64,000 bases of DNA from a virus (lineage: Duplodnaviria; Caudoviricetes). This document shows positions 19,300-35,162 of this stretch, in pieces. Every line of letters starts with the position of its first letter. Position 1 is the stretch's first letter. Position numbers and translations under genes: made by a program. The stretch spans positions 373,491-437,490 of IMG/VR virus record IMGVR_UViG_3300021978_000001. One strand, given 5' to 3'. A model generated the notes under the pieces. It was not told the DNA's origin. It worked only from the letters and a program-made list of their open reading frames with translations, and ran no database searches.

Positions 19300-20190
19300 A
19301 TGCCGGATAACACGCCCTCTCCTGAGTCTTCTCAGCTTCCTACGTTGCAAGACCGTCGTATTCGTATTGTTCCGCACCTCAAAGGACACAAGGAGGGGGT
19401 GATCTGTTTCGAGACTGGATGTTCGCGTGACGAGGTTTGTGATCTGCATCACTTCGTCTTCGATCATCACGGTTCCGAACACCATCCCTTGTTTTCTCCG
19501 TCTGCGTTGAGGCTGTTTCATGAGCGTTTGATGCTTGGCCAGGCCATGCCTTCTGTCTTGCTGTTGACCCGATGGTATCGCATCGACCAGATCATGGCGT
19601 CTGCGATGTTCATCGAACCCGGTCTCCTCTTGCTTCAAGGCTTTACTAGCCTGGTGCAATCGGTCGATCAGGTCGAGCGGCTGGGTCCTCTCGCCCTGGC
19701 GCATATCCCCTGGGAACACAAGGAATTGATCCGCCTACTCCGTCACGTTACCCGATTGTACAGATCACGTCAAGCACATCAGGAGTCTCTTTCGACACAA
19801 GACCATGAAAACGCATTGACTTTACTCGTGCAATGCACCCAATACATCGCGACCTATCTTATGGAAGGCACCTTGCCTCTCGAACCTGAAACCCCTCCTG
19901 AGCTGGACGTGCTCGCCGCAGGAGAGGGGTTTATCGCGTTTACATGTGAGGAGTGGCCCTGGGATGTGGCGTGGTCGAGTGGCGCGGTGTGGGGTGTGTG
20001 GTTTGGTCCAAGACAAACCGAGGTGCGCGCGAAGTCCACCTTGATCGGGTTGGAGACGCGCGTGGTCACAGAGCGACTCGGGGAGATGTTCACCTATCAG
20101 GATGACATCTCCCCGGGTTGGGTGTCTTCGTCTGTGTTCGAGGACCGGGAAGCTCAGGAAGAGCTGTTGGAAAGGCTACTGGGCTCTTGA
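19300..20190 (+). CDS. hypothetical protein
   Basis: AAGGA RBS; 296 aa; divergent from phosphoesterase. Confidence 0.65.
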   Translation: MPDNTPSPESSQLPTLQDRRIRIVPHLKGHKEGVICFETGCSRDEVCDLHHFVFDHHGSEHHPLFSPSALRLFHERLMLGQAMPSVLLLTRWYRIDQIMASAMFIEPGLLLLQGFTSLVQSVDQVERLGPLALAHIPWEHKELIRLLRHVTRLYRSRQAHQESLSTQDHENALTLLVQCTQYIATYLMEGTLPLEPETPPELDVLAAGEGFIAFTCEEWPWDVAWSSGAVWGVWFGPRQTEVRAKSTLIGLETRVVTERLGEMFTYQDDISPGWVSSSVFEDREAQEELLERLLGS

Positions 20191-20224
20191 AGACGGGCTC
20201 GTGAAGGCAGGTCCTTGACCGCGC

Positions 20225-20356
20225 TCAAATGACTTCGAGGTACTTGAGCCCTGCCATAATCGCGATGATGACCAGGACCAGGAACACCATGACGAGAACC
20301 AGAATCACGATGAAGATCAGAAGTTCGATCAGCGTGAAGCCCTGACGTTGCTTCAT
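20225..20356 (-). CDS. mini-prepilin (type IV pilin N-terminal cleavage/methylation motif only)
   Basis: MKQRQG^FTLIELLIFIVILVLVMVFLVLVIIAIMAGLKYLEVI; 43 aa. Confidence 0.6.
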   Translation of the reverse strand: MKQRQGFTLIELLIFIVILVLVMVFLVLVIIAIMAGLKYLEVI

Positions 20357-20523
20357 CGAGGCAGATAAAGCCTCACGCAATGCGCCAGGCAGCGCGTGAA
20401 GCCTTGCGTACCGTGAATGCGCGGAGAGATGCGCGGAGAGATAAGCGAAGATAGCCAACATGTGTGCTCCTATGAGAGGTGTAAAGGACTCCACCTCCAG
20501 GGTAGCTCGACACATCTTGCTCG

Positions 20524-21321
20524 TCAAGCTCCCTCGAACGCGCGCTTTGCCTGGTTGTAGCCCGACTCGATCAGGGCTTCTGCTTCCTCGCGGTTCATGT
20601 TGAAGTTCAAGCTCCCGGAGCCCGCCTTCAACCCTACCATGCGCGCGTGCACCGCGTCTTCGATGTGCTCTCTCGCGATTGCCCCCATCATGATGTCCAC
20701 GACGCTCATGGCGTAATCCTTGAGCGTCTCGGGTGGTTGTGGCGCTGCGAGGGGCCTGATCTGGAAGCCAAAGACCCCCTCACCCAGCCCATAGATGTCA
20801 AGCGGGAAGTTCGATGCGACGCCGCCGTCAATGTGACGCTCACCCTTGATGCGCGCGGGCCGGAACACGAACGGGATCGAGATCGAGGCGCGCACGGCGT
20901 CTGCCATGTTTACATGGGGTGTGCCCTCAGTGGAGTAGACCATGTGGTTGGGGCCATAGTTGCCCGCGCCATCGAGGTTGACTGTTCCGATGTTGCACGG
21001 GATGTAGGCGTCCCCGAGGGTCGCGACAAACACCTGCTGCATCGCGTGCTTGATGCGGTCCCCTTTGATGAGCCCCCAGTCACACCAGGGCTTCCAGGAC
21101 CAATCCACGAGCTTTTTGGGACCGGGGAGCATGTCGAGCAGCATATCGTTAAGCTGCGGTCCCGGGCTGTATCCCGAGGCAACAGCGGCGGCGATGATGG
21201 CGCCTCCCGAGACACCTGTGATATGCTCGATCTGGTAACCTTGGTCGGCCAAATACCAGAGCGCGCCTGCGTGGAGAGGGTACAGGAGCCCTGCACCTGA
21301 GAGTACGATCTTGAGTTTCAT
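20524..21321 (-). CDS. patatin-like phospholipase
   Basis: VLSGAG, nucleophile GVSGG, AVRASISIPFVF.P, IDGG..SNFP. Confidence 0.9.
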   Translation of the reverse strand: MKLKIVLSGAGLLYPLHAGALWYLADQGYQIEHITGVSGGAIIAAAVASGYSPGPQLNDMLLDMLPGPKKLVDWSWKPWCDWGLIKGDRIKHAMQQVFVATLGDAYIPCNIGTVNLDGAGNYGPNHMVYSTEGTPHVNMADAVRASISIPFVFRPARIKGERHIDGGVASNFPLDIYGLGEGVFGFQIRPLAAPQPPETLKDYAMSVVDIMMGAIAREHIEDAVHARMVGLKAGSGSLNFNMNREEAEALIESGYNQAKRAFEGA

Positions 21322-21322
21322 G

Positions 21323-21757
21323 TCACTCCTCCTCGGTGAGTGTGGCGAGGTCCACATCGACCATGCTGTCTTCCGGGCGGAGTGCAGGGGCAGGGAGTCT
21401 CGCGTTGCTATCCAACTTCCAGGGGTTGCCCTCGCCTTCCTTTTTTATCACGGGGAGCTTGCGCGTCTCTCGAAGCTCCTGCTGACGCGCCTGGGGGAGC
21501 TGTTGGGTCACCTTGAGGGTGTCGCTCAGGCTTTCGCTGTCCAGGCTCGCAGGGGTCTTGTGCTCGTGCCGCTCGAAGGCTTCGCGCCCGCGTTTTTCTC
21601 GCAGGGCCGCACGCCATTCACTCCAGTCCACGAGTTGGTCCTGCTCATCATACCCTATGGTGCGAGAGCTTTCTGCTTGTCGTCTACGTTCACGCAAGGC
21701 GCGCTTTTGCCAGGGCGCAGGCTTGATGATTTGACACAACGGTGCTTTCTTTTTCAT
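21323..21757 (-). CDS. hypothetical protein
   Basis: ATGA overlap with upstream stop (21754). Confidence 0.6.
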   Translation of the reverse strand: MKKKAPLCQIIKPAPWQKRALRERRRQAESSRTIGYDEQDQLVDWSEWRAALREKRGREAFERHEHKTPASLDSESLSDTLKVTQQLPQARQQELRETRKLPVIKKEGEGNPWKLDSNARLPAPALRPEDSMVDVDLATLTEEE

Positions 21758-22881
21758 CCGTCCAGACCATCCTCGAAGCCATAAAAGCTCGCCGTGCAAA
21801 ACGTCCCATCAAACGGCGTGTCGGTATCCAGCTTGACCTTGATGCGGAGACCCTGATCCGCGCGCAAGCGCACGACCGCCTGGTAGTCCCAGGGGAACGT
21901 CAGCACAGGAGAGGTCGAATCTCGCCAGGTCGGGTTCGCGTTGGTGGTGTACGGGATCGTGGCGTAAGCTCCGTTTGCTTCGTTGCAGTAGTCGTAGAAG
22001 CTCTTGTAGGTCGCAGGTGCTCCGAGTTCCACACGATCTGTGGGCTGCAATAGCCCTTGCTCGACGGCATCGGGCGCGAACACAGCGGCATACCCTTCGA
22101 TGAAGAAATGGATCGTGTCACGAATCGAGGTGTCCTGGGTGAATTGAACCTCGACACGGCTCAGGTCGATCTGGCGCCCCTCTTCGGGTTGGATGTAGAA
22201 ATCGGAGGTGGTCGCATGGTAGTAATCAATAGTGACAGCTTGTCCTGCGGTCAGCGCCTCGTGGAAGTGGACGACCCCTGCGGCGTAGTCGATGGTGTAA
22301 TCTCTCTTGAAAGACGGGTCCTGGTTCTCGCCGTATTGCGCGAGCGTTTCTGTCTTGAGATCACCGTCAACGTACACGCGGGGTTGATACGAGGTTCCTT
22401 CTGGAGAGAGGATGCTGTCCTCTTTCCACTGCTTGCCGTGAGTCATGTCGATGAGGTTGACCTGGCTGACGTTGTACGTCTTGTAATCGCCTGCATGCCC
22501 CAGGGCTTCTCCCTCCACCAAAGCCGCGCAGGTGTACCAGGTGGTCGGGTCCGTCCAACGATGGGATACCTTGTTAAAGCGATCGACGCGTGGGGGGTAA
22601 GTCGAAACCGTGATCGAGGGTTGCTTTTTTACAGGCAAGTTACTTGTAGGGGTCAGCGGTTCGCCTGAATGATTGGCAATGATCTCGTCGAGTGCCGCTT
22701 TTTGGGCAGGTTCAAGCTCGACCTTGAAGTGGATGAGGATCGTCGAGCCTTCGAGCTGGATGCCGAGAGGATCGAGCGCGATCGTGATGTCTGGGCTCGC
22801 CTGGATTTCTTTTTCGAGACGTCCCGGATTAGCTTTGTTGTTCGGGGTCGCGTCGAGGTTATAGGTGTAGGTCGTGGCCAT
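21754..22881 (-). CDS. putative virion structural protein
   Basis: TGATG overlap; N-terminal domain shared with 22881..23660. Confidence 0.7.
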   Translation of the reverse strand: MATTYTYNLDATPNNKANPGRLEKEIQASPDITIALDPLGIQLEGSTILIHFKVELEPAQKAALDEIIANHSGEPLTPTSNLPVKKQPSITVSTYPPRVDRFNKVSHRWTDPTTWYTCAALVEGEALGHAGDYKTYNVSQVNLIDMTHGKQWKEDSILSPEGTSYQPRVYVDGDLKTETLAQYGENQDPSFKRDYTIDYAAGVVHFHEALTAGQAVTIDYYHATTSDFYIQPEEGRQIDLSRVEVQFTQDTSIRDTIHFFIEGYAAVFAPDAVEQGLLQPTDRVELGAPATYKSFYDYCNEANGAYATIPYTTNANPTWRDSTSPVLTFPWDYQAVVRLRADQGLRIKVKLDTDTPFDGTFCTASFYGFEDGLDG

Positions 22882-23660
22882 CAGCTTATCCTTTGGATGA
22901 AGAGACGCGCATTTTGGATATAAGCCGTACCGAGAAGCCCCGAGTCCCGGCGCCATTGGATCGCGATTTGATTGACACCGGATAACGTCGCGACCTTGAT
23001 GCCTCCATTGCTTGTCCGCACAGAACGGTAGACTTTCAAGAGGCTCAGGATAAACGTCACGTCGAGCAGGAAAGCGCTCGTTGCCGTGTTCCCATAGGTC
23101 TCACTCGTGGTCAAGTTTCGGAGCCGCGCTTGTGCGATACGGTTGGGGCCTGCGTCTCCACGAAGCTCACAGCTCCAGTAAATCAAGTATGTACCTGCCT
23201 CGAAGTCCTGCATGATACTTGCACGGGTGGCAAAAGTCTCACTCGTGGTTCCTGTTTCCGCATTCACTTCGGTATGCCAATGCTGAGACGTGATGTTGAT
23301 TTGAGCGATAAGCGCGTTGACATTCTCGCCGTTGAGGTCGCCCACGTTGTAGAGGTTGTTATTCTGGAGGTCGAGGTCTTCATCCCATGCTGCGGCCTCT
23401 TCGCTTGCTGTAGTTTCGGGATCTGAAGCGGTATGCGCAGCGATAATGCCATCCAGTTCGGTGACTTCTCCACCTGTCAATGCGGGGTCTGTCCAGACTT
23501 CGATTGAAGTTGGAGGGTTTGACATGTTATCTTCATGCTTCACGTACTCCAGCTTCGCGGCGAAGGTCGAGGCTTCGATCTCTCCACGGAGCTTGGAGAG
23601 GCTGGCGGTACCATCCAACGTATCTGTCGCAATCGTATATGTGTATACGGTAAAACTCAT
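22881..23660 (-). CDS. putative virion fibre/decoration protein
   Basis: T/S/A-rich; DLDLQNNNLYNVG fibre-like motif; beta-rich C-terminus. Confidence 0.65.
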   Translation of the reverse strand: MSFTVYTYTIATDTLDGTASLSKLRGEIEASTFAAKLEYVKHEDNMSNPPTSIEVWTDPALTGGEVTELDGIIAAHTASDPETTASEEAAAWDEDLDLQNNNLYNVGDLNGENVNALIAQINITSQHWHTEVNAETGTTSETFATRASIMQDFEAGTYLIYWSCELRGDAGPNRIAQARLRNLTTSETYGNTATSAFLLDVTFILSLLKVYRSVRTSNGGIKVATLSGVNQIAIQWRRDSGLLGTAYIQNARLFIQRIS

Positions 23661-24493
23661 GCTGATACCCTGTAGAACATGAAATAGCTACGGTCTACGA
23701 AACTATTCGTGCCGTTGGACCCCCCAAACGAGAACGTGATGTTGTATGTCCCGGCGCTCAGGTTAAGAAGGCGGAATCCCGCCGCAAGGAAGCGTTGGTT
23801 GGACCCGAAACCATCCAGGAGACCTCCCGCGTCTTGAGGCTCTTGTCTATGGAAGCTGATCTCCGTGTTGTCGAGAGAGATGCGTGCGATGAAATCCGAG
23901 TTGGTAGAGTTGTAGGCCCATGTGTAGCTGAAGTCCAGCCTGTAAAGACCGTCAACGCTGGCAGTTACACTGAAGCTGTCTCGATCAAACAAACCATCAT
24001 TTGGCGGGGGGTTACCGTTGAAGGGGGCGGATACTCCTTGCTCGGTGGTATTCGTCACCGTGGTTAGGTCGTTGAAACGACCAAGCTCTGCATTCAAGGC
24101 TTCGATCGCACTTTGAACATCGGTCACCCCCAACAGGGTCAAGGCATCATCGTAGTCGATCTCGGCTGCAAGCAGGCCCGGGTCTGCGTTTGCATCACGA
24201 ATGACTAGAGCGTATGGGCCACTATCCGGGAAGGGTACGGTCTGGAGGAAGGACTCGACATCGGCTTGTGCGACATCGGTTGTACCGTCGTTGAGGATAA
24301 GCGTGGAAGAGCCCGCACCAAAGGCGTCATCTTGCGTGAGCACCAGGAGGTTTCGGCTCTCGGAGATCTCTTGCAAGGCGTCCTGGTTGGTGAACGTGAC
24401 CGAACCCCCCGAACCCGGGATAAGGACTCCCAGGTCACTGATAAGGACATCGGTGACCTGGGAGACGTTGGTTTTGATGATCAGGGTGGCCAT
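23657..24493 (-). CDS. putative virion fibre/decoration protein
   Basis: N-terminal ~85 aa paralogous to 24503..25933; L..TDVQSAIEAL fibre motif. Confidence 0.7.
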   Translation of the reverse strand: MATLIIKTNVSQVTDVLISDLGVLIPGSGGSVTFTNQDALQEISESRNLLVLTQDDAFGAGSSTLILNDGTTDVAQADVESFLQTVPFPDSGPYALVIRDANADPGLLAAEIDYDDALTLLGVTDVQSAIEALNAELGRFNDLTTVTNTTEQGVSAPFNGNPPPNDGLFDRDSFSVTASVDGLYRLDFSYTWAYNSTNSDFIARISLDNTEISFHRQEPQDAGGLLDGFGSNQRFLAAGFRLLNLSAGTYNITFSFGGSNGTNSFVDRSYFMFYRVSA

Positions 24494-24502
24494 TCAAGCC
24501 TC

Positions 24503-25933
24503 TTACACGATGGCGAGCACTTCATTCACTTCGACCAGCGCCACCACATTGTCGAACGCGGAACCGAGCGCGATACCTCCCACGCGCTCCATACTCAAGC
24601 TCAACTCGTCTCCTGCGTTGTAAGACACGTTCAAGGCTGTGGAGGCAGCCGTGTCGTTTCCGTTAGGCAAAGACAGGGAGGCCACTTCAGTGCCGTTGAT
24701 CTTGATCGAGAGCTTATAGTTGTTCGAGGTTGGCGCCGTGTCTACTTGCAAGGTCGCAGCAGTGATCACGCCGTTGCGTGGGAGATACAACCCTGCGGCA
24801 CTGGTCGCGACATTGCCTGCGCTCTTCAGGAACCGCACACCGCCCAAGGGTACGCTCAAGTTGGAGCCGAAGGTGATCCACTTTCCAACGTATCGGGAGT
24901 CCTGGAGCGCGGGATTGTTAGCACCCGAGTTTTGCCAAACCCCTGCGTCTGCGTCCCACACGTAAATCGTGTCTTCGTCCCTGGTAACGTGGGTTTCCGA
25001 AGGTTGGAGGGTTGCAGTTGCACGTCCAAAACCAAACGTCTTGACCGCTGGGTCGGCTCCAGGCAACTGAGCGCTCACCGAAGAGGTGTAATCCAGGAGA
25101 CCCTCGAAGCTCACGTACTGCACGTCTGCGGGAGTCGTGAACGTACCGTAGATGCGATCGTCGTAAGAATCTTGAGCCGAGTTGTCGGTACGGTAAATTG
25201 CCACCACACGGGCGTTCAACTGGTCGAGGGCGTCTTCGGTGACGGCGCTCCAGAGCGTCGAGTCTGTGTTGATGGTTGTGGTCAGGTTGTCCATCGTCTC
25301 CAAGGCGTCCGCGCCGATCTCTACATCGAACGCGACCGCTGGAGTTGCAGTGAACGTGAACGTCTCGGTGGTCGTGCCATCCGTGATCACGAGCGTGTCC
25401 CCTTCGGCTGCATTATTGTCCAACCAGAATGGAATCGCTTGAGAGATCGCATCATTGACGGAATCGAGCTGCTCGGTGACGAGGATCAGCTCTTTCCAGG
25501 TGCGGAACCCGCTCGTGCGGTCATCCACGTATTGCTTGTTTGCGGCATCAGACGCATTGACAGGGGTAGGCAGTCCCGTGATCGTCGCGGTGCCGTCGAA
25601 TGTGACGTTATCATCGACTTCACCATCAGCGTTGTTCTTGACTACGCCGAAGTCATTGCTCGCGTCGGGGAGGATGAGCGTGTCGAGGAAGTTCTCGGCA
25701 TCCGCCTGGTCGATGTCTGCGGTGCCGTCATTGAGGATGAGTGTCGAGGAGCCCGCGCCGAAGGCGTCGTCTGTCAAGAGCGTGCGCAGGTTGCGCGACT
25801 CCTGAAGCTCGACAAGCTCATCATTGGATGTGAAGGTGTCTTGACCCCCACCGAGGGGGATGAAGATGCCAACGTCTGCGATCAGGACGTCAGCGCCGGT
25901 ACCTGCATTTGATTTGATAACAAGAGTGGCCAT
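24503..25933 (-). CDS. putative virion fibre protein
   Basis: ITGLPTPVNASDAANKQYVD fibre repeat motif; AAGGAG RBS. Confidence 0.75.
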   Translation of the reverse strand: MATLVIKSNAGTGADVLIADVGIFIPLGGGQDTFTSNDELVELQESRNLRTLLTDDAFGAGSSTLILNDGTADIDQADAENFLDTLILPDASNDFGVVKNNADGEVDDNVTFDGTATITGLPTPVNASDAANKQYVDDRTSGFRTWKELILVTEQLDSVNDAISQAIPFWLDNNAAEGDTLVITDGTTTETFTFTATPAVAFDVEIGADALETMDNLTTTINTDSTLWSAVTEDALDQLNARVVAIYRTDNSAQDSYDDRIYGTFTTPADVQYVSFEGLLDYTSSVSAQLPGADPAVKTFGFGRATATLQPSETHVTRDEDTIYVWDADAGVWQNSGANNPALQDSRYVGKWITFGSNLSVPLGGVRFLKSAGNVATSAAGLYLPRNGVITAATLQVDTAPTSNNYKLSIKINGTEVASLSLPNGNDTAASTALNVSYNAGDELSLSMERVGGIALGSAFDNVVALVEVNEVLAIV

Positions 25934-25954
25934 GGGTGGCTCCTTTTTTGGAAG

Positions 25955-26941
25955 TCAGGCGGCGGTCATCTGAACCGTCACCACGATGTTTTCAAATAGA
26001 CTCTTGCTACTTCCAGACGTGCGTCTTACCTGCACTTGAACACGTTGTCCCGTGATCAGGGGAATCATGACGGCTTGGGTGAGGCTCTGGACCCCTGCTG
26101 GAATGGGCACGCTCGTCATCAAGACCTGGTTCACAAATAGATCAACGGTGTAATCCTGTGTGTCTGTAGCATCGAGAGAGACTCCCACAGCCGAGAACGT
26201 CCCCGCTGCGGGTGCGACCCAGGGCGCGCTCGATGTCACGACCGTTCCTGCTTTCAGATACAAACGCCCGGCTCCCGCAGGGACCGCGATGTCCGAGGTC
26301 AACGTGAGGACGCTGAGTTCCTGGCCACCGCCCGCAGCGGCGGCGTTGGTCAACACCCACCAGTTTCCGAGACCATCTGCTTGCAAGGTCACCGCACCGA
26401 GCGCATCACTCAAAGCATAGGTGCCTGGGACGCCTTCGATGGTGTTCCCCACAGGCGCCGTGATCAGGACGCTGTTGCCATCGAGAGATGTCTTCTTGAT
26501 GGTGATGCGTGTGCCTTCTGGGGTACGCTCCTGGGGGAAGGGTTCGGAGAAGATGTCCGGGAGGTTCACGAGGACATCCCCGCCATCCGTGCTCACCGTG
26601 AGCAAGGTATCATCGGCCTGGACATCATAGGCGGGCACGAATTGCTCGATGCCCTCATCGACTTCGATGTTCTGGAGGATAAAGGCTTCGAGCAAGCCTC
26701 CATCAAGGAAACCCCGGATGCTGCCTTGCTGGTAACTGGTCAGGGTTCGATCGGTCAGGAGGATGTCCACGGTCTCTCGGAAAGGGACGTAGACCGGGAT
26801 CTTTTCATTGTCGCGTTTGTTCTCAGGGGTGTCCAGGTCACTCAGGAAGAGACTACCGCCCGAGACGCCTGTGTGCCGCAAGCGAATGAACTTCGCTCCC
26901 TTGCGGATGGGGTAGGTGTGTGCGTTGATCAGGCCAGGCAT
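25955..26941 (-). CDS. putative virion fibre/head-associated protein
   Basis: V.LP...GTRITIKKT....V.I...GNTIEG fibre module; C-terminal domain similar to 24503..25933. Confidence 0.7.
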   Translation of the reverse strand: MPGLINAHTYPIRKGAKFIRLRHTGVSGGSLFLSDLDTPENKRDNEKIPVYVPFRETVDILLTDRTLTSYQQGSIRGFLDGGLLEAFILQNIEVDEGIEQFVPAYDVQADDTLLTVSTDGGDVLVNLPDIFSEPFPQERTPEGTRITIKKTSLDGNSVLITAPVGNTIEGVPGTYALSDALGAVTLQADGLGNWWVLTNAAAAGGGQELSVLTLTSDIAVPAGAGRLYLKAGTVVTSSAPWVAPAAGTFSAVGVSLDATDTQDYTVDLFVNQVLMTSVPIPAGVQSLTQAVMIPLITGQRVQVQVRRTSGSSKSLFENIVVTVQMTAA

Positions 26942-32113: not shown

Positions 32114-32115
32114 TT

Positions 32116-32327
32116 TATCCTCGCCCCGCACACGCGGGGAACACTGGTCAATGTCTGAGCGCACGATCTCAGTGATCGGACCATCCCCGCGCACGCGGGG
32201 AACACGGTGAGGGCTGGAGCCGTCACGAGGTGGACATCGGACCATCCCCGCACGCGCGGGGAACACATCTGGTCCCAGGTCTCGGGTGTCCAGTTCACCG
32301 GACCATCCCCGCGCACGCGGGGAACAC
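32116..32327 (-). CRISPR. type I-E CRISPR array 2: 4 repeats, 3 spacers of 32 nt
   Basis: Repeats at 32299-32327, 32238-32266, 32177-32205 and degenerate 32116-32144; 61-bp period. Confidence 0.97.
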
Positions 32328-32453
32328 TCTTCAAATGTCCAGTTCCGTAAGTCCTCGGATTCTTTACAGAATCCTCGAACCCTCGCGAACCCGCTTCCCT
32401 GTACCGACTCGAAAGGTACCTCGACTTGACAGGTCGTGTCAAGTGTTATTCGA
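32328..32453 (-). promoter_or_regulatory. CRISPR leader plus promoter copy 2
   Basis: Leader ends TTTGAAGA before GTGTTCCCC; GGATTCT-N4-AGAATCC inverted repeat; TTGACA-N18-TACCTT; ACTTGACA-N5-TGTCAAGT. Confidence 0.85.
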
Positions 32454-32697
32454 CGACTTTTCCATCACTCGCAGGGATGAACACCCCCGGCCCGCGTTCG
32501 AGCACGGCGAAAAACCCCTGCTCGCCATTATGGACCCCCCTGTGCGCGGGATGGTTACGGAAAGCGACGCGTCGGCCTTTCGAGCCATCCACGGTCACGT
32601 CGATGCGGCATTTGGTGCCAGGTCCGATTTGGGCCATGTACGTGTCGGGGTCGATGATTTTGTGGCCGTAGGTGTTCGTGCCGTCTTCGTTCGTCAT
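32446..32697 (-). CDS. hypothetical protein
   Basis: GAGGA RBS; own class I promoter; stop abuts promoter copy 2. Confidence 0.65.
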   Translation of the reverse strand: MTNEDGTNTYGHKIIDPDTYMAQIGPGTKCRIDVTVDGSKGRRVAFRNHPAHRGVHNGEQGFFAVLERGPGVFIPASDGKVVE

Positions 32698-32735
32698 AGC
32701 ATTCCTCTCTTGATGGTGAGTTCACGTTACGCTTT

Positions 32736-32765
32736 ATCTATACCACAAGAGGGACAGGCCGTAAA
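32736..32765 (-). promoter_or_regulatory. recurrent phage promoter class I
   Basis: TTTACG-N17(...CTTGTGG)-TATAGAT. Confidence 0.75.
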
Positions 32766-32768
32766 GAA

Positions 32769-33257
32769 TCAATCTCCAGGCAAGAGGGAGTGACTCGGCA
32801 CATCCTTGACACCGAGCAAGGAAGGGAGGAAGGCGAGCGCTTCTTCGATCGTGGGGAAGATGAGGTCTGCGGCTTCACGGATGAACGCGTGATCCATGCA
32901 ATGCCCATCCGTCAGCCCCGCGATCACGACCAGCGTGTGCTCTTGACGCGAGGCCCACGCGATCTCGAAGGTGGTCCCGAGCGAGCGCGAGGTGGCGCCG
33001 GTGAGATCCGCGAGCAGGACATCGGCTTGCGCGACCATCCAGGAGTCCCGCCCGAAGATGGCGCGGTCATTGGAGATGGGGTCTTTGTAGCCCTTGGCCT
33101 TGGCTTCCCCTTGCCCGAGCAAGTGCTCCTTACCGAGCATCGGATGCAGGACATGGAAACCCATCGCCTTGAGGACGGTCCCGCGCTCGTGGAAGTGGTT
33201 GTAAGCGTCGTCGAGGTCGAGGCCCGTGATCGGTCCGGCTGCGTAAATGGTGGTCAT
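32769..33257 (-). CDS. nucleoside 2-deoxyribosyltransferase / NMP hydrolase-like protein
   Basis: IYAAGPITG, VLHP, D...V.QADVLLA, S.GT.FEIAWA. Confidence 0.8.
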   Translation of the reverse strand: MTTIYAAGPITGLDLDDAYNHFHERGTVLKAMGFHVLHPMLGKEHLLGQGEAKAKGYKDPISNDRAIFGRDSWMVAQADVLLADLTGATSRSLGTTFEIAWASRQEHTLVVIAGLTDGHCMDHAFIREAADLIFPTIEEALAFLPSLLGVKDVPSHSLLPGD

Positions 33258-33380
33258 GGTGTGCTACCTGTTGGTGACCCTGGGGAGGGTATCTCTCTTG
33301 TACCTCGAATGCTCCGGCCTGTCCAGTAAGCTGTGATATTTCCCTTGTAATGTGGGCTCTTTGACCCATGAGGAGGCGCC

Positions 33381-33755
33381 ATGGCTTCGGTTCGAGAAAT
33401 CCTGCACACGTATCTTGGGATGAACGTCTCGGGGAAACTCCGTGATGCCTTGATCGACATGTTGAGCTACAAGTCCCTCCCTTCCTGGGAGGATTGGCAA
33501 ACATGGTACCTCAATACAGTCGTGGAACACCTGGTTATCTTGTTGCCGGGTGCCACAGGGGACGGTCACGAAATCACGTTCACGCACTCTGAACACGGCT
33601 GGGTTCACCTGGCCTTTTCGTTTCGCACGGGTACCCAGACGCTTTGCGTGTCGATCCGAACCTCGAATCACCATGTGTGTTTGTATGAGGAAGACCCAAA
33701 CCTGTTGAGTCTTCTGGTCGTGCGCATTCACGAGACCCTGAGAGATCTATCATGA
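33381..33755 (+). CDS. hypothetical protein
   Basis: GAGGAGG RBS. Confidence 0.65.
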   Translation: MASVREILHTYLGMNVSGKLRDALIDMLSYKSLPSWEDWQTWYLNTVVEHLVILLPGATGDGHEITFTHSEHGWVHLAFSFRTGTQTLCVSIRTSNHHVCLYEEDPNLLSLLVVRIHETLRDLS

Positions 33756-34363
33756 CACTCGACGAACTCAAGACCACCTTGCTCGCCATGGGTGTTCAAC
33801 ACCCCGAAGTCAAGCTCCAGTTGCGCGCGGTGATGGATACGCTCTCGACAGGTGTCTTCGATCCCTCCCGTATCGCACGCACGAGGCGTGTGGCCGCGAT
33901 CCCCAAGAAGTACGAGCATCTCGACTTCACGCCACCCAAGGACGTGCAGGAGGCCGCAGGGCAGGGTCTCGAACTGCGTCAGGAGCAAGAGGGCGATAAG
34001 GCGGGGTTGACCAATGAAGAGGCGAGCGATCAGGGCATCGGGTCTGGTGTGCAGCGCGCGGTCAACCTCAAGAACGGGACCAAGCTCGAACCTGACACCA
34101 TCCGGCAGATGGATCGGTTCTTCAAGCGCTTCGCGTCTCTTATCGAGAAGGCGCGTCGTCTCACCAAGAAAGAGGAGATCCTCAAGTCCAATATGCATAT
34201 CAGTGATCTGCTCTGGGGAGGCGCGCCCGGTGAGAAGTGGGTCACCAAGATGATCCGCGAGATGGATAAGGCGGATGAGGCAGAGAAGAAAAAGGAGAGC
34301 GCCCTCGCACGTCGCGTCGCTTCTGTTTACCTTATGGCGCGAGGCGTGGCTCAGGGTCATTGA
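33752..34363 (+). CDS. phage head-associated domain protein
   Basis: FTPPKDVQEAA..GLELR...GVQRA.NL.NG....DTIRQM.RFF.R...LLWGG..G..W pattern seen in phage head/protease fusions; ends ARRVASVYL. Confidence 0.65.
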   Translation: MTLDELKTTLLAMGVQHPEVKLQLRAVMDTLSTGVFDPSRIARTRRVAAIPKKYEHLDFTPPKDVQEAAGQGLELRQEQEGDKAGLTNEEASDQGIGSGVQRAVNLKNGTKLEPDTIRQMDRFFKRFASLIEKARRLTKKEEILKSNMHISDLLWGGAPGEKWVTKMIREMDKADEAEKKKESALARRVASVYLMARGVAQGH

Positions 34364-34703
34364 GCGGTCGCACGCGCTCCAGCTTCACGTCATCCTGGTG
34401 CACGAGTACGCGCTGTCCTTCCTGGCGTTGGATCTCCCAGCACGCCCATTGCACATCCTTGTAGATGGATTCACACAGGTTCTTGACCTGGTTATAGGCT
34501 TCCTTGCCCTCCTGATACCAGAGACGGTCCATCGAATCCGAATCGAAGAGAAGATAGGTACGCCTCTCTTCGGGCTGAAACCCGTGCGCCTTGTATGCTG
34601 CGTCCGGCGTATCATGCTCGGTTAGATGAATCGTGAGCTTGGTTTGTGCCAGCCCATCCTCCTGTTGCTTTATCGTACCCATTTTCACACTGAGCCATGT
34701 CAT
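34332..34703 (-). CDS. 123-aa hypothetical protein directly downstream of array 3
   Basis: AGAAGGA SD begins immediately after terminal repeat; ATG 14 nt downstream. Confidence 0.7.
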   Translation of the reverse strand: MTWLSVKMGTIKQQEDGLAQTKLTIHLTEHDTPDAAYKAHGFQPEERRTYLLFDSDSMDRLWYQEGKEAYNQVKNLCESIYKDVQWACWEIQRQEGQRVLVHQDDVKLERVRPLNDPEPRLAP

Positions 34704-34717
34704 GGTTGTTTCCTTCT

Positions 34718-35162
34718 GGGGCTATCCCCGCGCATGCGGGGAATGTCGTTTCGCGCGTAAACAGGGCATCGAGCCATCCCCACAGATGTGGGGAACATAG
34801 GAGGCGAGCGCCAACATGAGACCAGATCCTCGGACCATCCCCGCACATGCGGGGAAAACATGTCCATATTCTCACCAATGAGTGAGGGCGAGCCATCCCC
34901 GCATGCGCGGGGAACACGGGTATACCCGGTATAGGAGGTATTCCTGGAATAGGGCCATCCCCGCATGCGCGGGGAACACAAAGAGTGGTGCGTGCGCGGT
35001 TCCAGACCCACCGGACCATCCCCGCACGCGCGGGGAACACGACAGCAGCGCCCACACGGGCATCACACGCCCCGGACCATCCCCGCGCATGCGGGGAACA
35101 CTCCGTCAATGAGGTCAGCATCCGCCCATATTGCGGACCATCCCCGCGCATGCGGGGAACAC
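34718..35162 (-). CRISPR. type I-E CRISPR array 3: 8 repeats, 7 spacers (32,32,32,33,29,32,23 nt from leader)
   Basis: Repeats at 35134, 35073, 35012, 34951, 34889, 34831, 34770, 34718 (29 nt each); degeneracy increases away from leader. Confidence 0.97.

Follow-up and report, generated by a model that had tools for sequence, protein, structure and literature searches.

A gene for a headless prepilin, termed here the mini-prepilin, has been identified in a 437,490-bp phage genome, where it very probably represents a real, translated gene. Its product is probably a 78-residue precursor in which a basic leader runs into the canonical class III (prepilin) signal KQRQG/FTLIELL, followed by a single long hydrophobic helix and a stop; the globular head of a pilin is missing. 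The product may interfere with type IV filament systems as a headless pilin stub matured by the host, a reading put forward tentatively and at slightly less than even confidence. The window analysed is the final 64 kb (64,000 nucleotides) of an IMG/VR phage record classed with direct terminal repeats, and coordinates refer to this window throughout, unless the genome is named.

Gene boundaries

The first-pass annotation had flagged a minus-strand ORF of 43 codons (P0001) and described a basic leader, Gly-1, Phe+1 and Glu+5, all of which are read from its translation. It had also taken the product to be 43 residues long with a weak ribosome-binding site, a description that is true of the internal ATG at 20356 only, for which a Shine-Dalgarno (SD) match is absent within 3–12 nt upstream; an SD-led start lies 105 nt further upstream. 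This start, ATG 20461, is in frame with the flagged ORF and has AGGAG at a spacing of 5 nt, where SD matches of at least 5 nt are found at ~7% of ATGs in a random sample from the phage genome and the spacing among its larger ORFs has its mode at 4–7 nt. Because ATG 20461 is SD-led at the modal spacing and ATG 20356 has no SD, the gene is probably longer than the 43-codon reading and its product is probably a 78-residue precursor (P0002), consisting of a 41-residue leader and a 37-residue mature part; the 78-residue form is also the protein on record for the phage contig. A third candidate start, TTG 20527, overlaps the stop codon of the upstream patatin gene, has GAGG only and would give a product of 100 residues, and is less likely than the SD-led ATG. 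The methionine encoded at 20356–20354 occupies the canonical -6 position, where a normal six-residue pilin leader would begin; it may be the ancestral pilin start, and a second, shorter isoform may be made from it.

Table 1. Features of the mini-prepilin locus and other features of the window (window coordinates)
Feature	Position	Strand	Basis
Mini-prepilin gene, whole: 78 codons and TGA stop (P0002)	20225..20461	minus	ORF list, SD analysis, sister conservation
Flagged ORF (P0001, 43 aa, TGA stop)	20225-20356	minus	translation
Shine-Dalgarno AGGAG, 5 nt upstream of ATG 20461-20459	20467..20471	minus	sequence
Leader, codons 1-41, basic (five Arg/Lys, one Glu, three His; charges +5/-1), ends MKQRQG	20339..20461	minus	sister alignment, AlphaFold2
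Two tandem copies of 12-nt unit CTCTCCGCGCAT, read LSAH	20417..20440	minus	sequence
Predicted prepilin-peptidase cleavage site, Gly41 (20341-20339) / Phe42 (20338-20336)	20336..20341	minus	N_methyl match
Predicted mature peptide, 37 residues: Phe1, Glu5, 31-residue hydrophobic helix, tail KYLEVI	20228..20338	minus	translation and AlphaFold2
TGA stop of mini-prepilin gene	20225-20227	minus	
Convergent downstream gene, 296 aa	19300..20190	plus	47% identical homologue, syntenic in L141/L143
Patatin-like phospholipase, GxSxG and DGG motifs	20524..21321	minus	Pfam PF01734, 99.5 bits
Basic ORF, 158 aa	21323-21799	minus	
Tail-fibre-like genes, tight run	21754-26941	minus	
Type I-E CRISPR repeat of phage, GGACCATCCCCGC-N4-GCGGGGAACAC	32114-35162		repeat pattern

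The prepilin signal and the mature peptide

The features of a class III signal, namely a basic leader up to Gly-1, Phe+1, Glu+5 and a hydrophobic stretch, are all present and are invariant in the four sequences available for the protein and its sisters. The Pfam N_methyl family (Pfam accession: PF07963) matches residues 1–26 of P0001 with 32.1 bits against a cut-off of 21.2 (E 7.6e-8), and TIGR02532 is passed marginally (16.6 against a cut-off of 16.3). Across all six frames of the 437,490-bp record the mini-prepilin is the one N_methyl match, and it is likewise the one match to a pattern that combines the motif with a hydrophobic helix; the same pattern found nothing in 40 genomes simulated with a second-order Markov model. 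As both tests return a single genomic match and the simulated genomes none, the prepilin signal is considered real and not a product of chance, and cleavage is predicted between Gly41 and Phe42.

The hydrophobic run described at first reading is there, although at 31 uninterrupted residues it is longer than the ~25 then estimated, and it is followed by the tail KYLEVI and the stop. AlphaFold2, supplied with a three-sequence alignment, models the mature part as one helix spanning residues 44–77, with block-mean pLDDT values mostly of 83–97 and of 71 over the last eight residues. Beyond residue 8 this helix is without the usual pilin signature, and Gly14 and Pro22 are not conserved. Among solved sequences, the N-termini of pilins match best (Geobacter PilA-N, MshA and PilA), with a top E value of 0.048 and a match over the motif only, and no pilin was among the matches at E<=0.001 when 1.84 billion representative proteins were searched exhaustively with phmmer. 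The mini-prepilin is set apart by its long conserved leader, its near-featureless hydrophobic helix and its invariant KYLEVI tail.

Leaders of type IVa or IVb prepilins are typically shorter than the 41 residues seen here. The leader is modelled at low confidence (AlphaFold2 pLDDT 52–60) as two helices, H2–22 and H26–39, separated by a Pro-Gly break, and the positions kept in the sister proteins on alignment are the start Met, AYL, LPG and MK.RQG. The copy number of an LSAH-type four-residue unit varies in the protein alignment, P0005 being four residues longer and P0003 and P0004 shorter, and at least one of these length differences appears to reflect a change in copy number of the 12-nt unit at 20417–20440. 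The leader was also considered as an instance of the helix-Pro-helix N-terminal tag shared by other proteins of the phage, and this was rejected: the tag family (LIRLGNANPELR type) was rebuilt from the genome as a cluster of 14 ORFs, and a profile made from 12 of these scores ~0 bits on P0002 to P0004, while BLAST of the leader against all ORFs of the phage gave no match. The tag itself, LIRLGNANPELR...KPVIAHL, is carried by 14 virion-region ORFs at ~216–325 kb of the genome.

Sister proteins and selective constraint

The exhaustive phmmer search of 1.84 billion representatives recovered only P0002 and a 72-residue protein, P0003, which is 77% identical to the 43-residue part of P0002; P0004 (72 residues) and P0005 (82 residues) came to light by cluster look-up and in a profile search. 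These three are sister-strain proteins from public run assemblies, on contigs of 13–75 kb. All four aligned proteins share the start Met, the cleavage motif, Glu5, the KYLEVI tail and the position of the stop; their lengths differ in the leader only, and the frame is open throughout. P0005 shows no change from P0002 in the 37 mature residues, with five substitutions and one four-residue insertion in its leader; of the 43 positions compared with P0002, 10 are changed in P0003, and every change falls in the stretch that separates the cleavage motif from the tail, without introducing a charged or polar residue or Pro. The leader thus appears, from these comparisons, to be the fast-evolving part of the protein, and the cleavage site, helix and tail the constrained part.

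Neutral drift was simulated to the divergence of P0003 in 5000 trials: intact stops together with a helix free of charged or polar residues and Pro arose in 7% of trials, untouched ends in 0.08%, and all conditions jointly in none of the 5000. Codon-usage and GC3 scoring gave the antisense frame of a hydrophobic ORF a score equal to that of its sense frame. The constrained substitution pattern, the restriction of length changes to the leader and the SD together make it likely that the mini-prepilin is a translated gene under selection. Only close sister strains carry the gene, and its conservation therefore spans little evolutionary time.

Searches elsewhere added no further sisters. None was found in IMG/VR by way of the patatin, the 296-residue neighbour, an exact 23-mer of the gene or protein alignment; the single match in JGI metagenomes is an ordinary 171-residue cellular pseudopilin within a T2SS/T4P locus; and tblastn of P0002 and the patatin against GenBank phages gave nothing usable, the low-complexity filter probably masking the helix.

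Downstream DNA and genomic neighbourhood

That the ORF might be a fragment of a frameshifted longer pilin had been raised by the first-pass annotation, and the check came out negative. The stop of the conserved convergent gene lies 34 nt from that of the mini-prepilin, and this gene fills the DNA where a pilin head would be encoded; the other frames hold no pilin-like sequence; translation past the TGA yields an antisense product rich in Pro, Arg and Thr, with no pilin head; and no longer relative was found by exhaustive phmmer or further search. The absence of a globular domain, noted at the outset, is borne out by the stop after 37 mature residues, so close to that of the convergent gene: the C-terminal globular alpha-beta head that a full pilin or pseudopilin subunit carries on alpha1-C is missing from the mini-prepilin.

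Upstream, on the same strand and 62 nt away, lies a patatin-like phospholipase gene, the nearest protein-atlas clusters of which are viral patatins and so offer no pointer to the host. Its start is placed at ATG 21321 (MKLKIVLSGAG), behind a GGAGGAG SD and 1 nt past the stop of the ORF at 21323–21799, and the start at 21357, which gives the longest ORF, is probably incorrect. A consensus scan of 19800–21000 returned no sigma-70-like promoter and no terminator, and a weak TTGACG-17-TACCCT was spotted by eye at 20527–20499. As these searches revealed no convincing dedicated promoter, the mini-prepilin is likely, on the simplest reading, to be co-transcribed with the upstream run of tail-fibre-like genes, small ORF and patatin. 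The position at the end of a tail-fibre run hints at late expression, which would be a poor fit to early superinfection exclusion.

The sole other relative of the phage in IMG/VR, a more distant one, is represented by loci L141/L143, with a GyrA 53% identical to that of the phage. The gene order is kept there through a Tpt1-like gene, thymidylate kinase, a metallophosphoesterase and the 296-residue gene, after which tail-fibre-like genes follow directly; patatin, N_methyl match and helix-only ORF are all missing from the syntenic slot. Because both are absent from this slot, the patatin and the mini-prepilin are regarded, on this comparison of sequences, as lineage-specific accessory genes.

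Dependence on the host

No Peptidase_A24 (prepilin peptidase) match is present in the phage genome, nor is there a real T2SSE-type pilus ATPase, the only candidate being a 14-bit P-loop match; judged by these two components, the genome lacks a dedicated pilus assembly machinery. With neither Peptidase_A24 nor a real T2SSE ATPase encoded by the phage, any processing enzyme (of PilD/GspO type) or target must be supplied by the host. Matches (genome loci L012–L050) to the pattern of the type I-E CRISPR repeat of the phage fall mostly in Actinomycetota, including Gordonia, Nonomuraea, Streptomonospora and Streptomyces, with a minority in one Burkholderiales MAG (39 copies) and one Desulfovibrionales MAG; these matches are ambiguous and point to no clear host. 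Pilins of the GFTLIE type are uncommon in Actinomycetota.

Comparison with known systems

Truncated PilA-like proteins of ~60 N-terminal residues ('P-PilA') have been described in six virulent Pseudomonas phages and are proposed to block pilus-dependent phages by entering the pilus or by inhibiting its assembly; P-FimU, a prophage protein of the same study, is a minor pilin of full size for which experimental proof exists (Cell Rep 2026, PMC12952977). P-PilA and the mini-prepilin are both phage-encoded, both combine the pilin N-terminal signal with a helix, and neither is accompanied by encoded pilus machinery; each recurs in related phages, and for this reason neither is a sequencing error. 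By analogy, the roles proposed for P-PilA are identical to those that the mini-prepilin may have. The two differ in that the mature part of the mini-prepilin is 37 residues long, nearly the membrane helix alone, is without detectable pilin similarity beyond the motif, and is preceded by a conserved 41-residue leader.

Geobacter PilA-N (Geopilin domain 1; PDB 7tgg and 9egp) is likewise a short pilin consisting mostly of the N-terminal helix, and the 7tgg chain, the best match among solved sequences (E 0.048), also has a long leader, the match beginning at chain residue 21. Geobacter PilA-N has 61 mature residues, is cellular and is paired with a separately encoded PilA-C head, whereas no PilA-C-like partner lies beside the mini-prepilin, the downstream gene being the unrelated convergent one. 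Tip and Aqs1 are small phage proteins that bind PilB and shut down type IV pili. Another small phage protein, Zip, targets PilZ (PMC12952977; bioRxiv 10.1101/2024.03.05.583538). The mini-prepilin resembles all three in being an accessory gene product with a proposed benefit of superinfection exclusion through pilus loss, but those proteins hit PilB or PilZ, whereas the mini-prepilin would be a membrane peptide imitating the pilin substrate. No relevant report of dominant-negative truncated pilins emerged from a search of the literature.

Other short prepilin ORFs in viral genomes

A motif scan of IMG/VR yielded 80 loci with a GFTLIELL-type motif, about one-third of which encode fewer than 60 residues past the cleavage site. 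Helix-only ORFs, with 40 or fewer such residues, are represented by five intact examples and one cut by the locus edge (L072, L120, L093, L051, L075 and L094). These six share the helix-only build of the mini-prepilin and its occurrence in very large phage genomes, and in two of them (L072 and L120) the ORF is likewise the last of a gene run, with a convergent gene opposite. They differ in having short leaders of 4–9 residues and helices that keep more of the pilin consensus, and they are unrelated to the mini-prepilin outside the motif. The neighbourhoods of the helix-only ORFs have no shared functional theme.

Several groups of short prepilins were observed in the same survey. L072, L120 and L093, on contigs of 312–314 kb, each encode a 34-codon helix-only prepilin with a leader ending in KSKG or KQKG, and their neighbours have no Pfam match. 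A separate viral mini-pilin family, with a short leader, a GFTLIELLI helix, a mature part of ~59 residues, two Cys and the end ...QLCTYN, was found on ~14 viral contigs of ~4.5–140 kb (L053, L070, L074, L076, L077, L079, L083, L106, L107, L108, L112, L121, L065 and L069), and resembles a conserved phage pilin whose head is tiny; a related form of 61–68 residues occurs at four more loci (L091, L110, L118 and L125). In L073 and L104 a short prepilin ORF has a helix that includes three tandem 11-residue units (ELLITLVIAAI), an internally repeated pilin stalk.

Proposed function and alternative explanations

Processing of the precursor by a host prepilin peptidase is judged reasonably probable, and interference of the matured, headless stub with type IV filament systems is the favoured reading and is given somewhat under an even chance. 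It is favoured because the parts that are conserved (Gly-1, Phe1, Glu5, the helix and the periplasmic tail) are those that matter in pilin biology. For the processing, the target and the benefit, we infer the following course of events. The gene would be co-transcribed with the upstream run and translated from the SD-led ATG 20461, and the precursor would enter the inner membrane as prepilins do, its leader remaining in the cytoplasm as expected from the positive-inside rule. A PilD/GspO-type peptidase of the host would cut after Gly41 and methylate Phe42, leaving a 37-residue stub that keeps Glu5 and an alpha1-N-like helix. This stub could then compete with the pilins or pseudopilins of the host for access to the peptidase and assembly platform, or enter the filament core; being without a head, it would be unable to support normal filament growth. 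Type IV pili, T2SS pseudopili or both would be lost or altered in the infected cell, to the benefit of the phage in that rivals needing pili might be excluded, progeny kept off doomed cells, or motility stopped.

A small membrane protein unrelated to pili is considered unlikely; it might be holin- or antiholin-like, a depolarising peptide, or a partner or regulator of the patatin, with the prepilin signal serving as a mere insertion or maturation device or persisting as an evolutionary leftover. The mature product is indeed essentially one transmembrane helix with a core that lacks typical pilin residues, and the gene directly follows that of the patatin, both being missing together from the slot of the relative. 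Conservation, however, is highest in the tail and in the cleavage motif together with its Phe1 and Glu5, and the only weak PHROG match is to a prepilin-like N-terminus of an unknown family. A holin in particular is disfavoured by the lack of any PHROG or Pfam holin match, by neighbours that are a patatin and the 296-residue gene with no adjoining endolysin, and by a KYLEVI tail of net charge 0, unlike the charged C-terminus usual in holins. A role purely as a peptidase decoy, in which the precursor saturates the host prepilin peptidase and leaves host pilins or pseudopilins unprocessed, is considered improbable, even though the substrate motif is perfect, the unusually long leader could slow release of the product and no peptidase is encoded by the phage: to titrate the enzyme, the precursor would have to be expressed very strongly or carry a site that cannot be cleaved, whereas Gly-1 is retained, and a substrate mimic would not need the conserved Glu5, whole helix and periplasmic tail. 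Glu5 is reportedly required for assembly and not for cleavage, as mutagenesis of Pseudomonas PilA by Strom and Lory in 1991 is said to have found.

The remaining alternatives deny the ORF a present function. It is improbable that it is a decaying remnant, that is, the 5' end of a captured host pilin gene that was cut on insertion and is still open for lack of time; such an origin would agree with its presence only in this phage and close sisters and its absence from the next relative, and with the Met at the canonical -6 position, which resembles an old pilin start, but the drift simulation marks the substitution pattern as non-random, the mature part of P0005 is identical while its leader has changed, the four sequences all agree in stop and tail, and a good SD precedes the conserved upstream start. 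There is very little likelihood that it is a chance ORF, and no gene, in the spacer between the patatin and the convergent gene: its shortness and the lack of a sigma-70-like promoter or terminator in the consensus scan are what such an ORF would show, whereas the failure of the motif to appear in 40 simulated genomes, the SD, and conservation with constrained ends are not.

A broader version of the interference reading is speculative and is held to be doubtful. Under it, large phages would have evolved helix-only prepilins repeatedly and independently as a weapon, matured by the host peptidase and jamming type IV filament machines; the conserved 41-residue leader would make the mini-prepilin a two-part pro-peptide, with a basic cytoplasmic peptide set free on cleavage to serve a separate function, and the mini-prepilin could act together with the neighbouring patatin.

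Implications

Among phage receptors and fitness factors, type IV pili and T2SS pseudopili rank as major ones. The mini-prepilin adds a well-delimited, conserved, long-leader example to a class of phage proteins already in print. If the interference with type IV filament systems proposed here is true, the 37-residue peptide would be close to the smallest anti-pilus factor known and would offer a simple genetic tool to switch off these systems, and a testable function would be available for the many very short prepilin ORFs of viral contigs.
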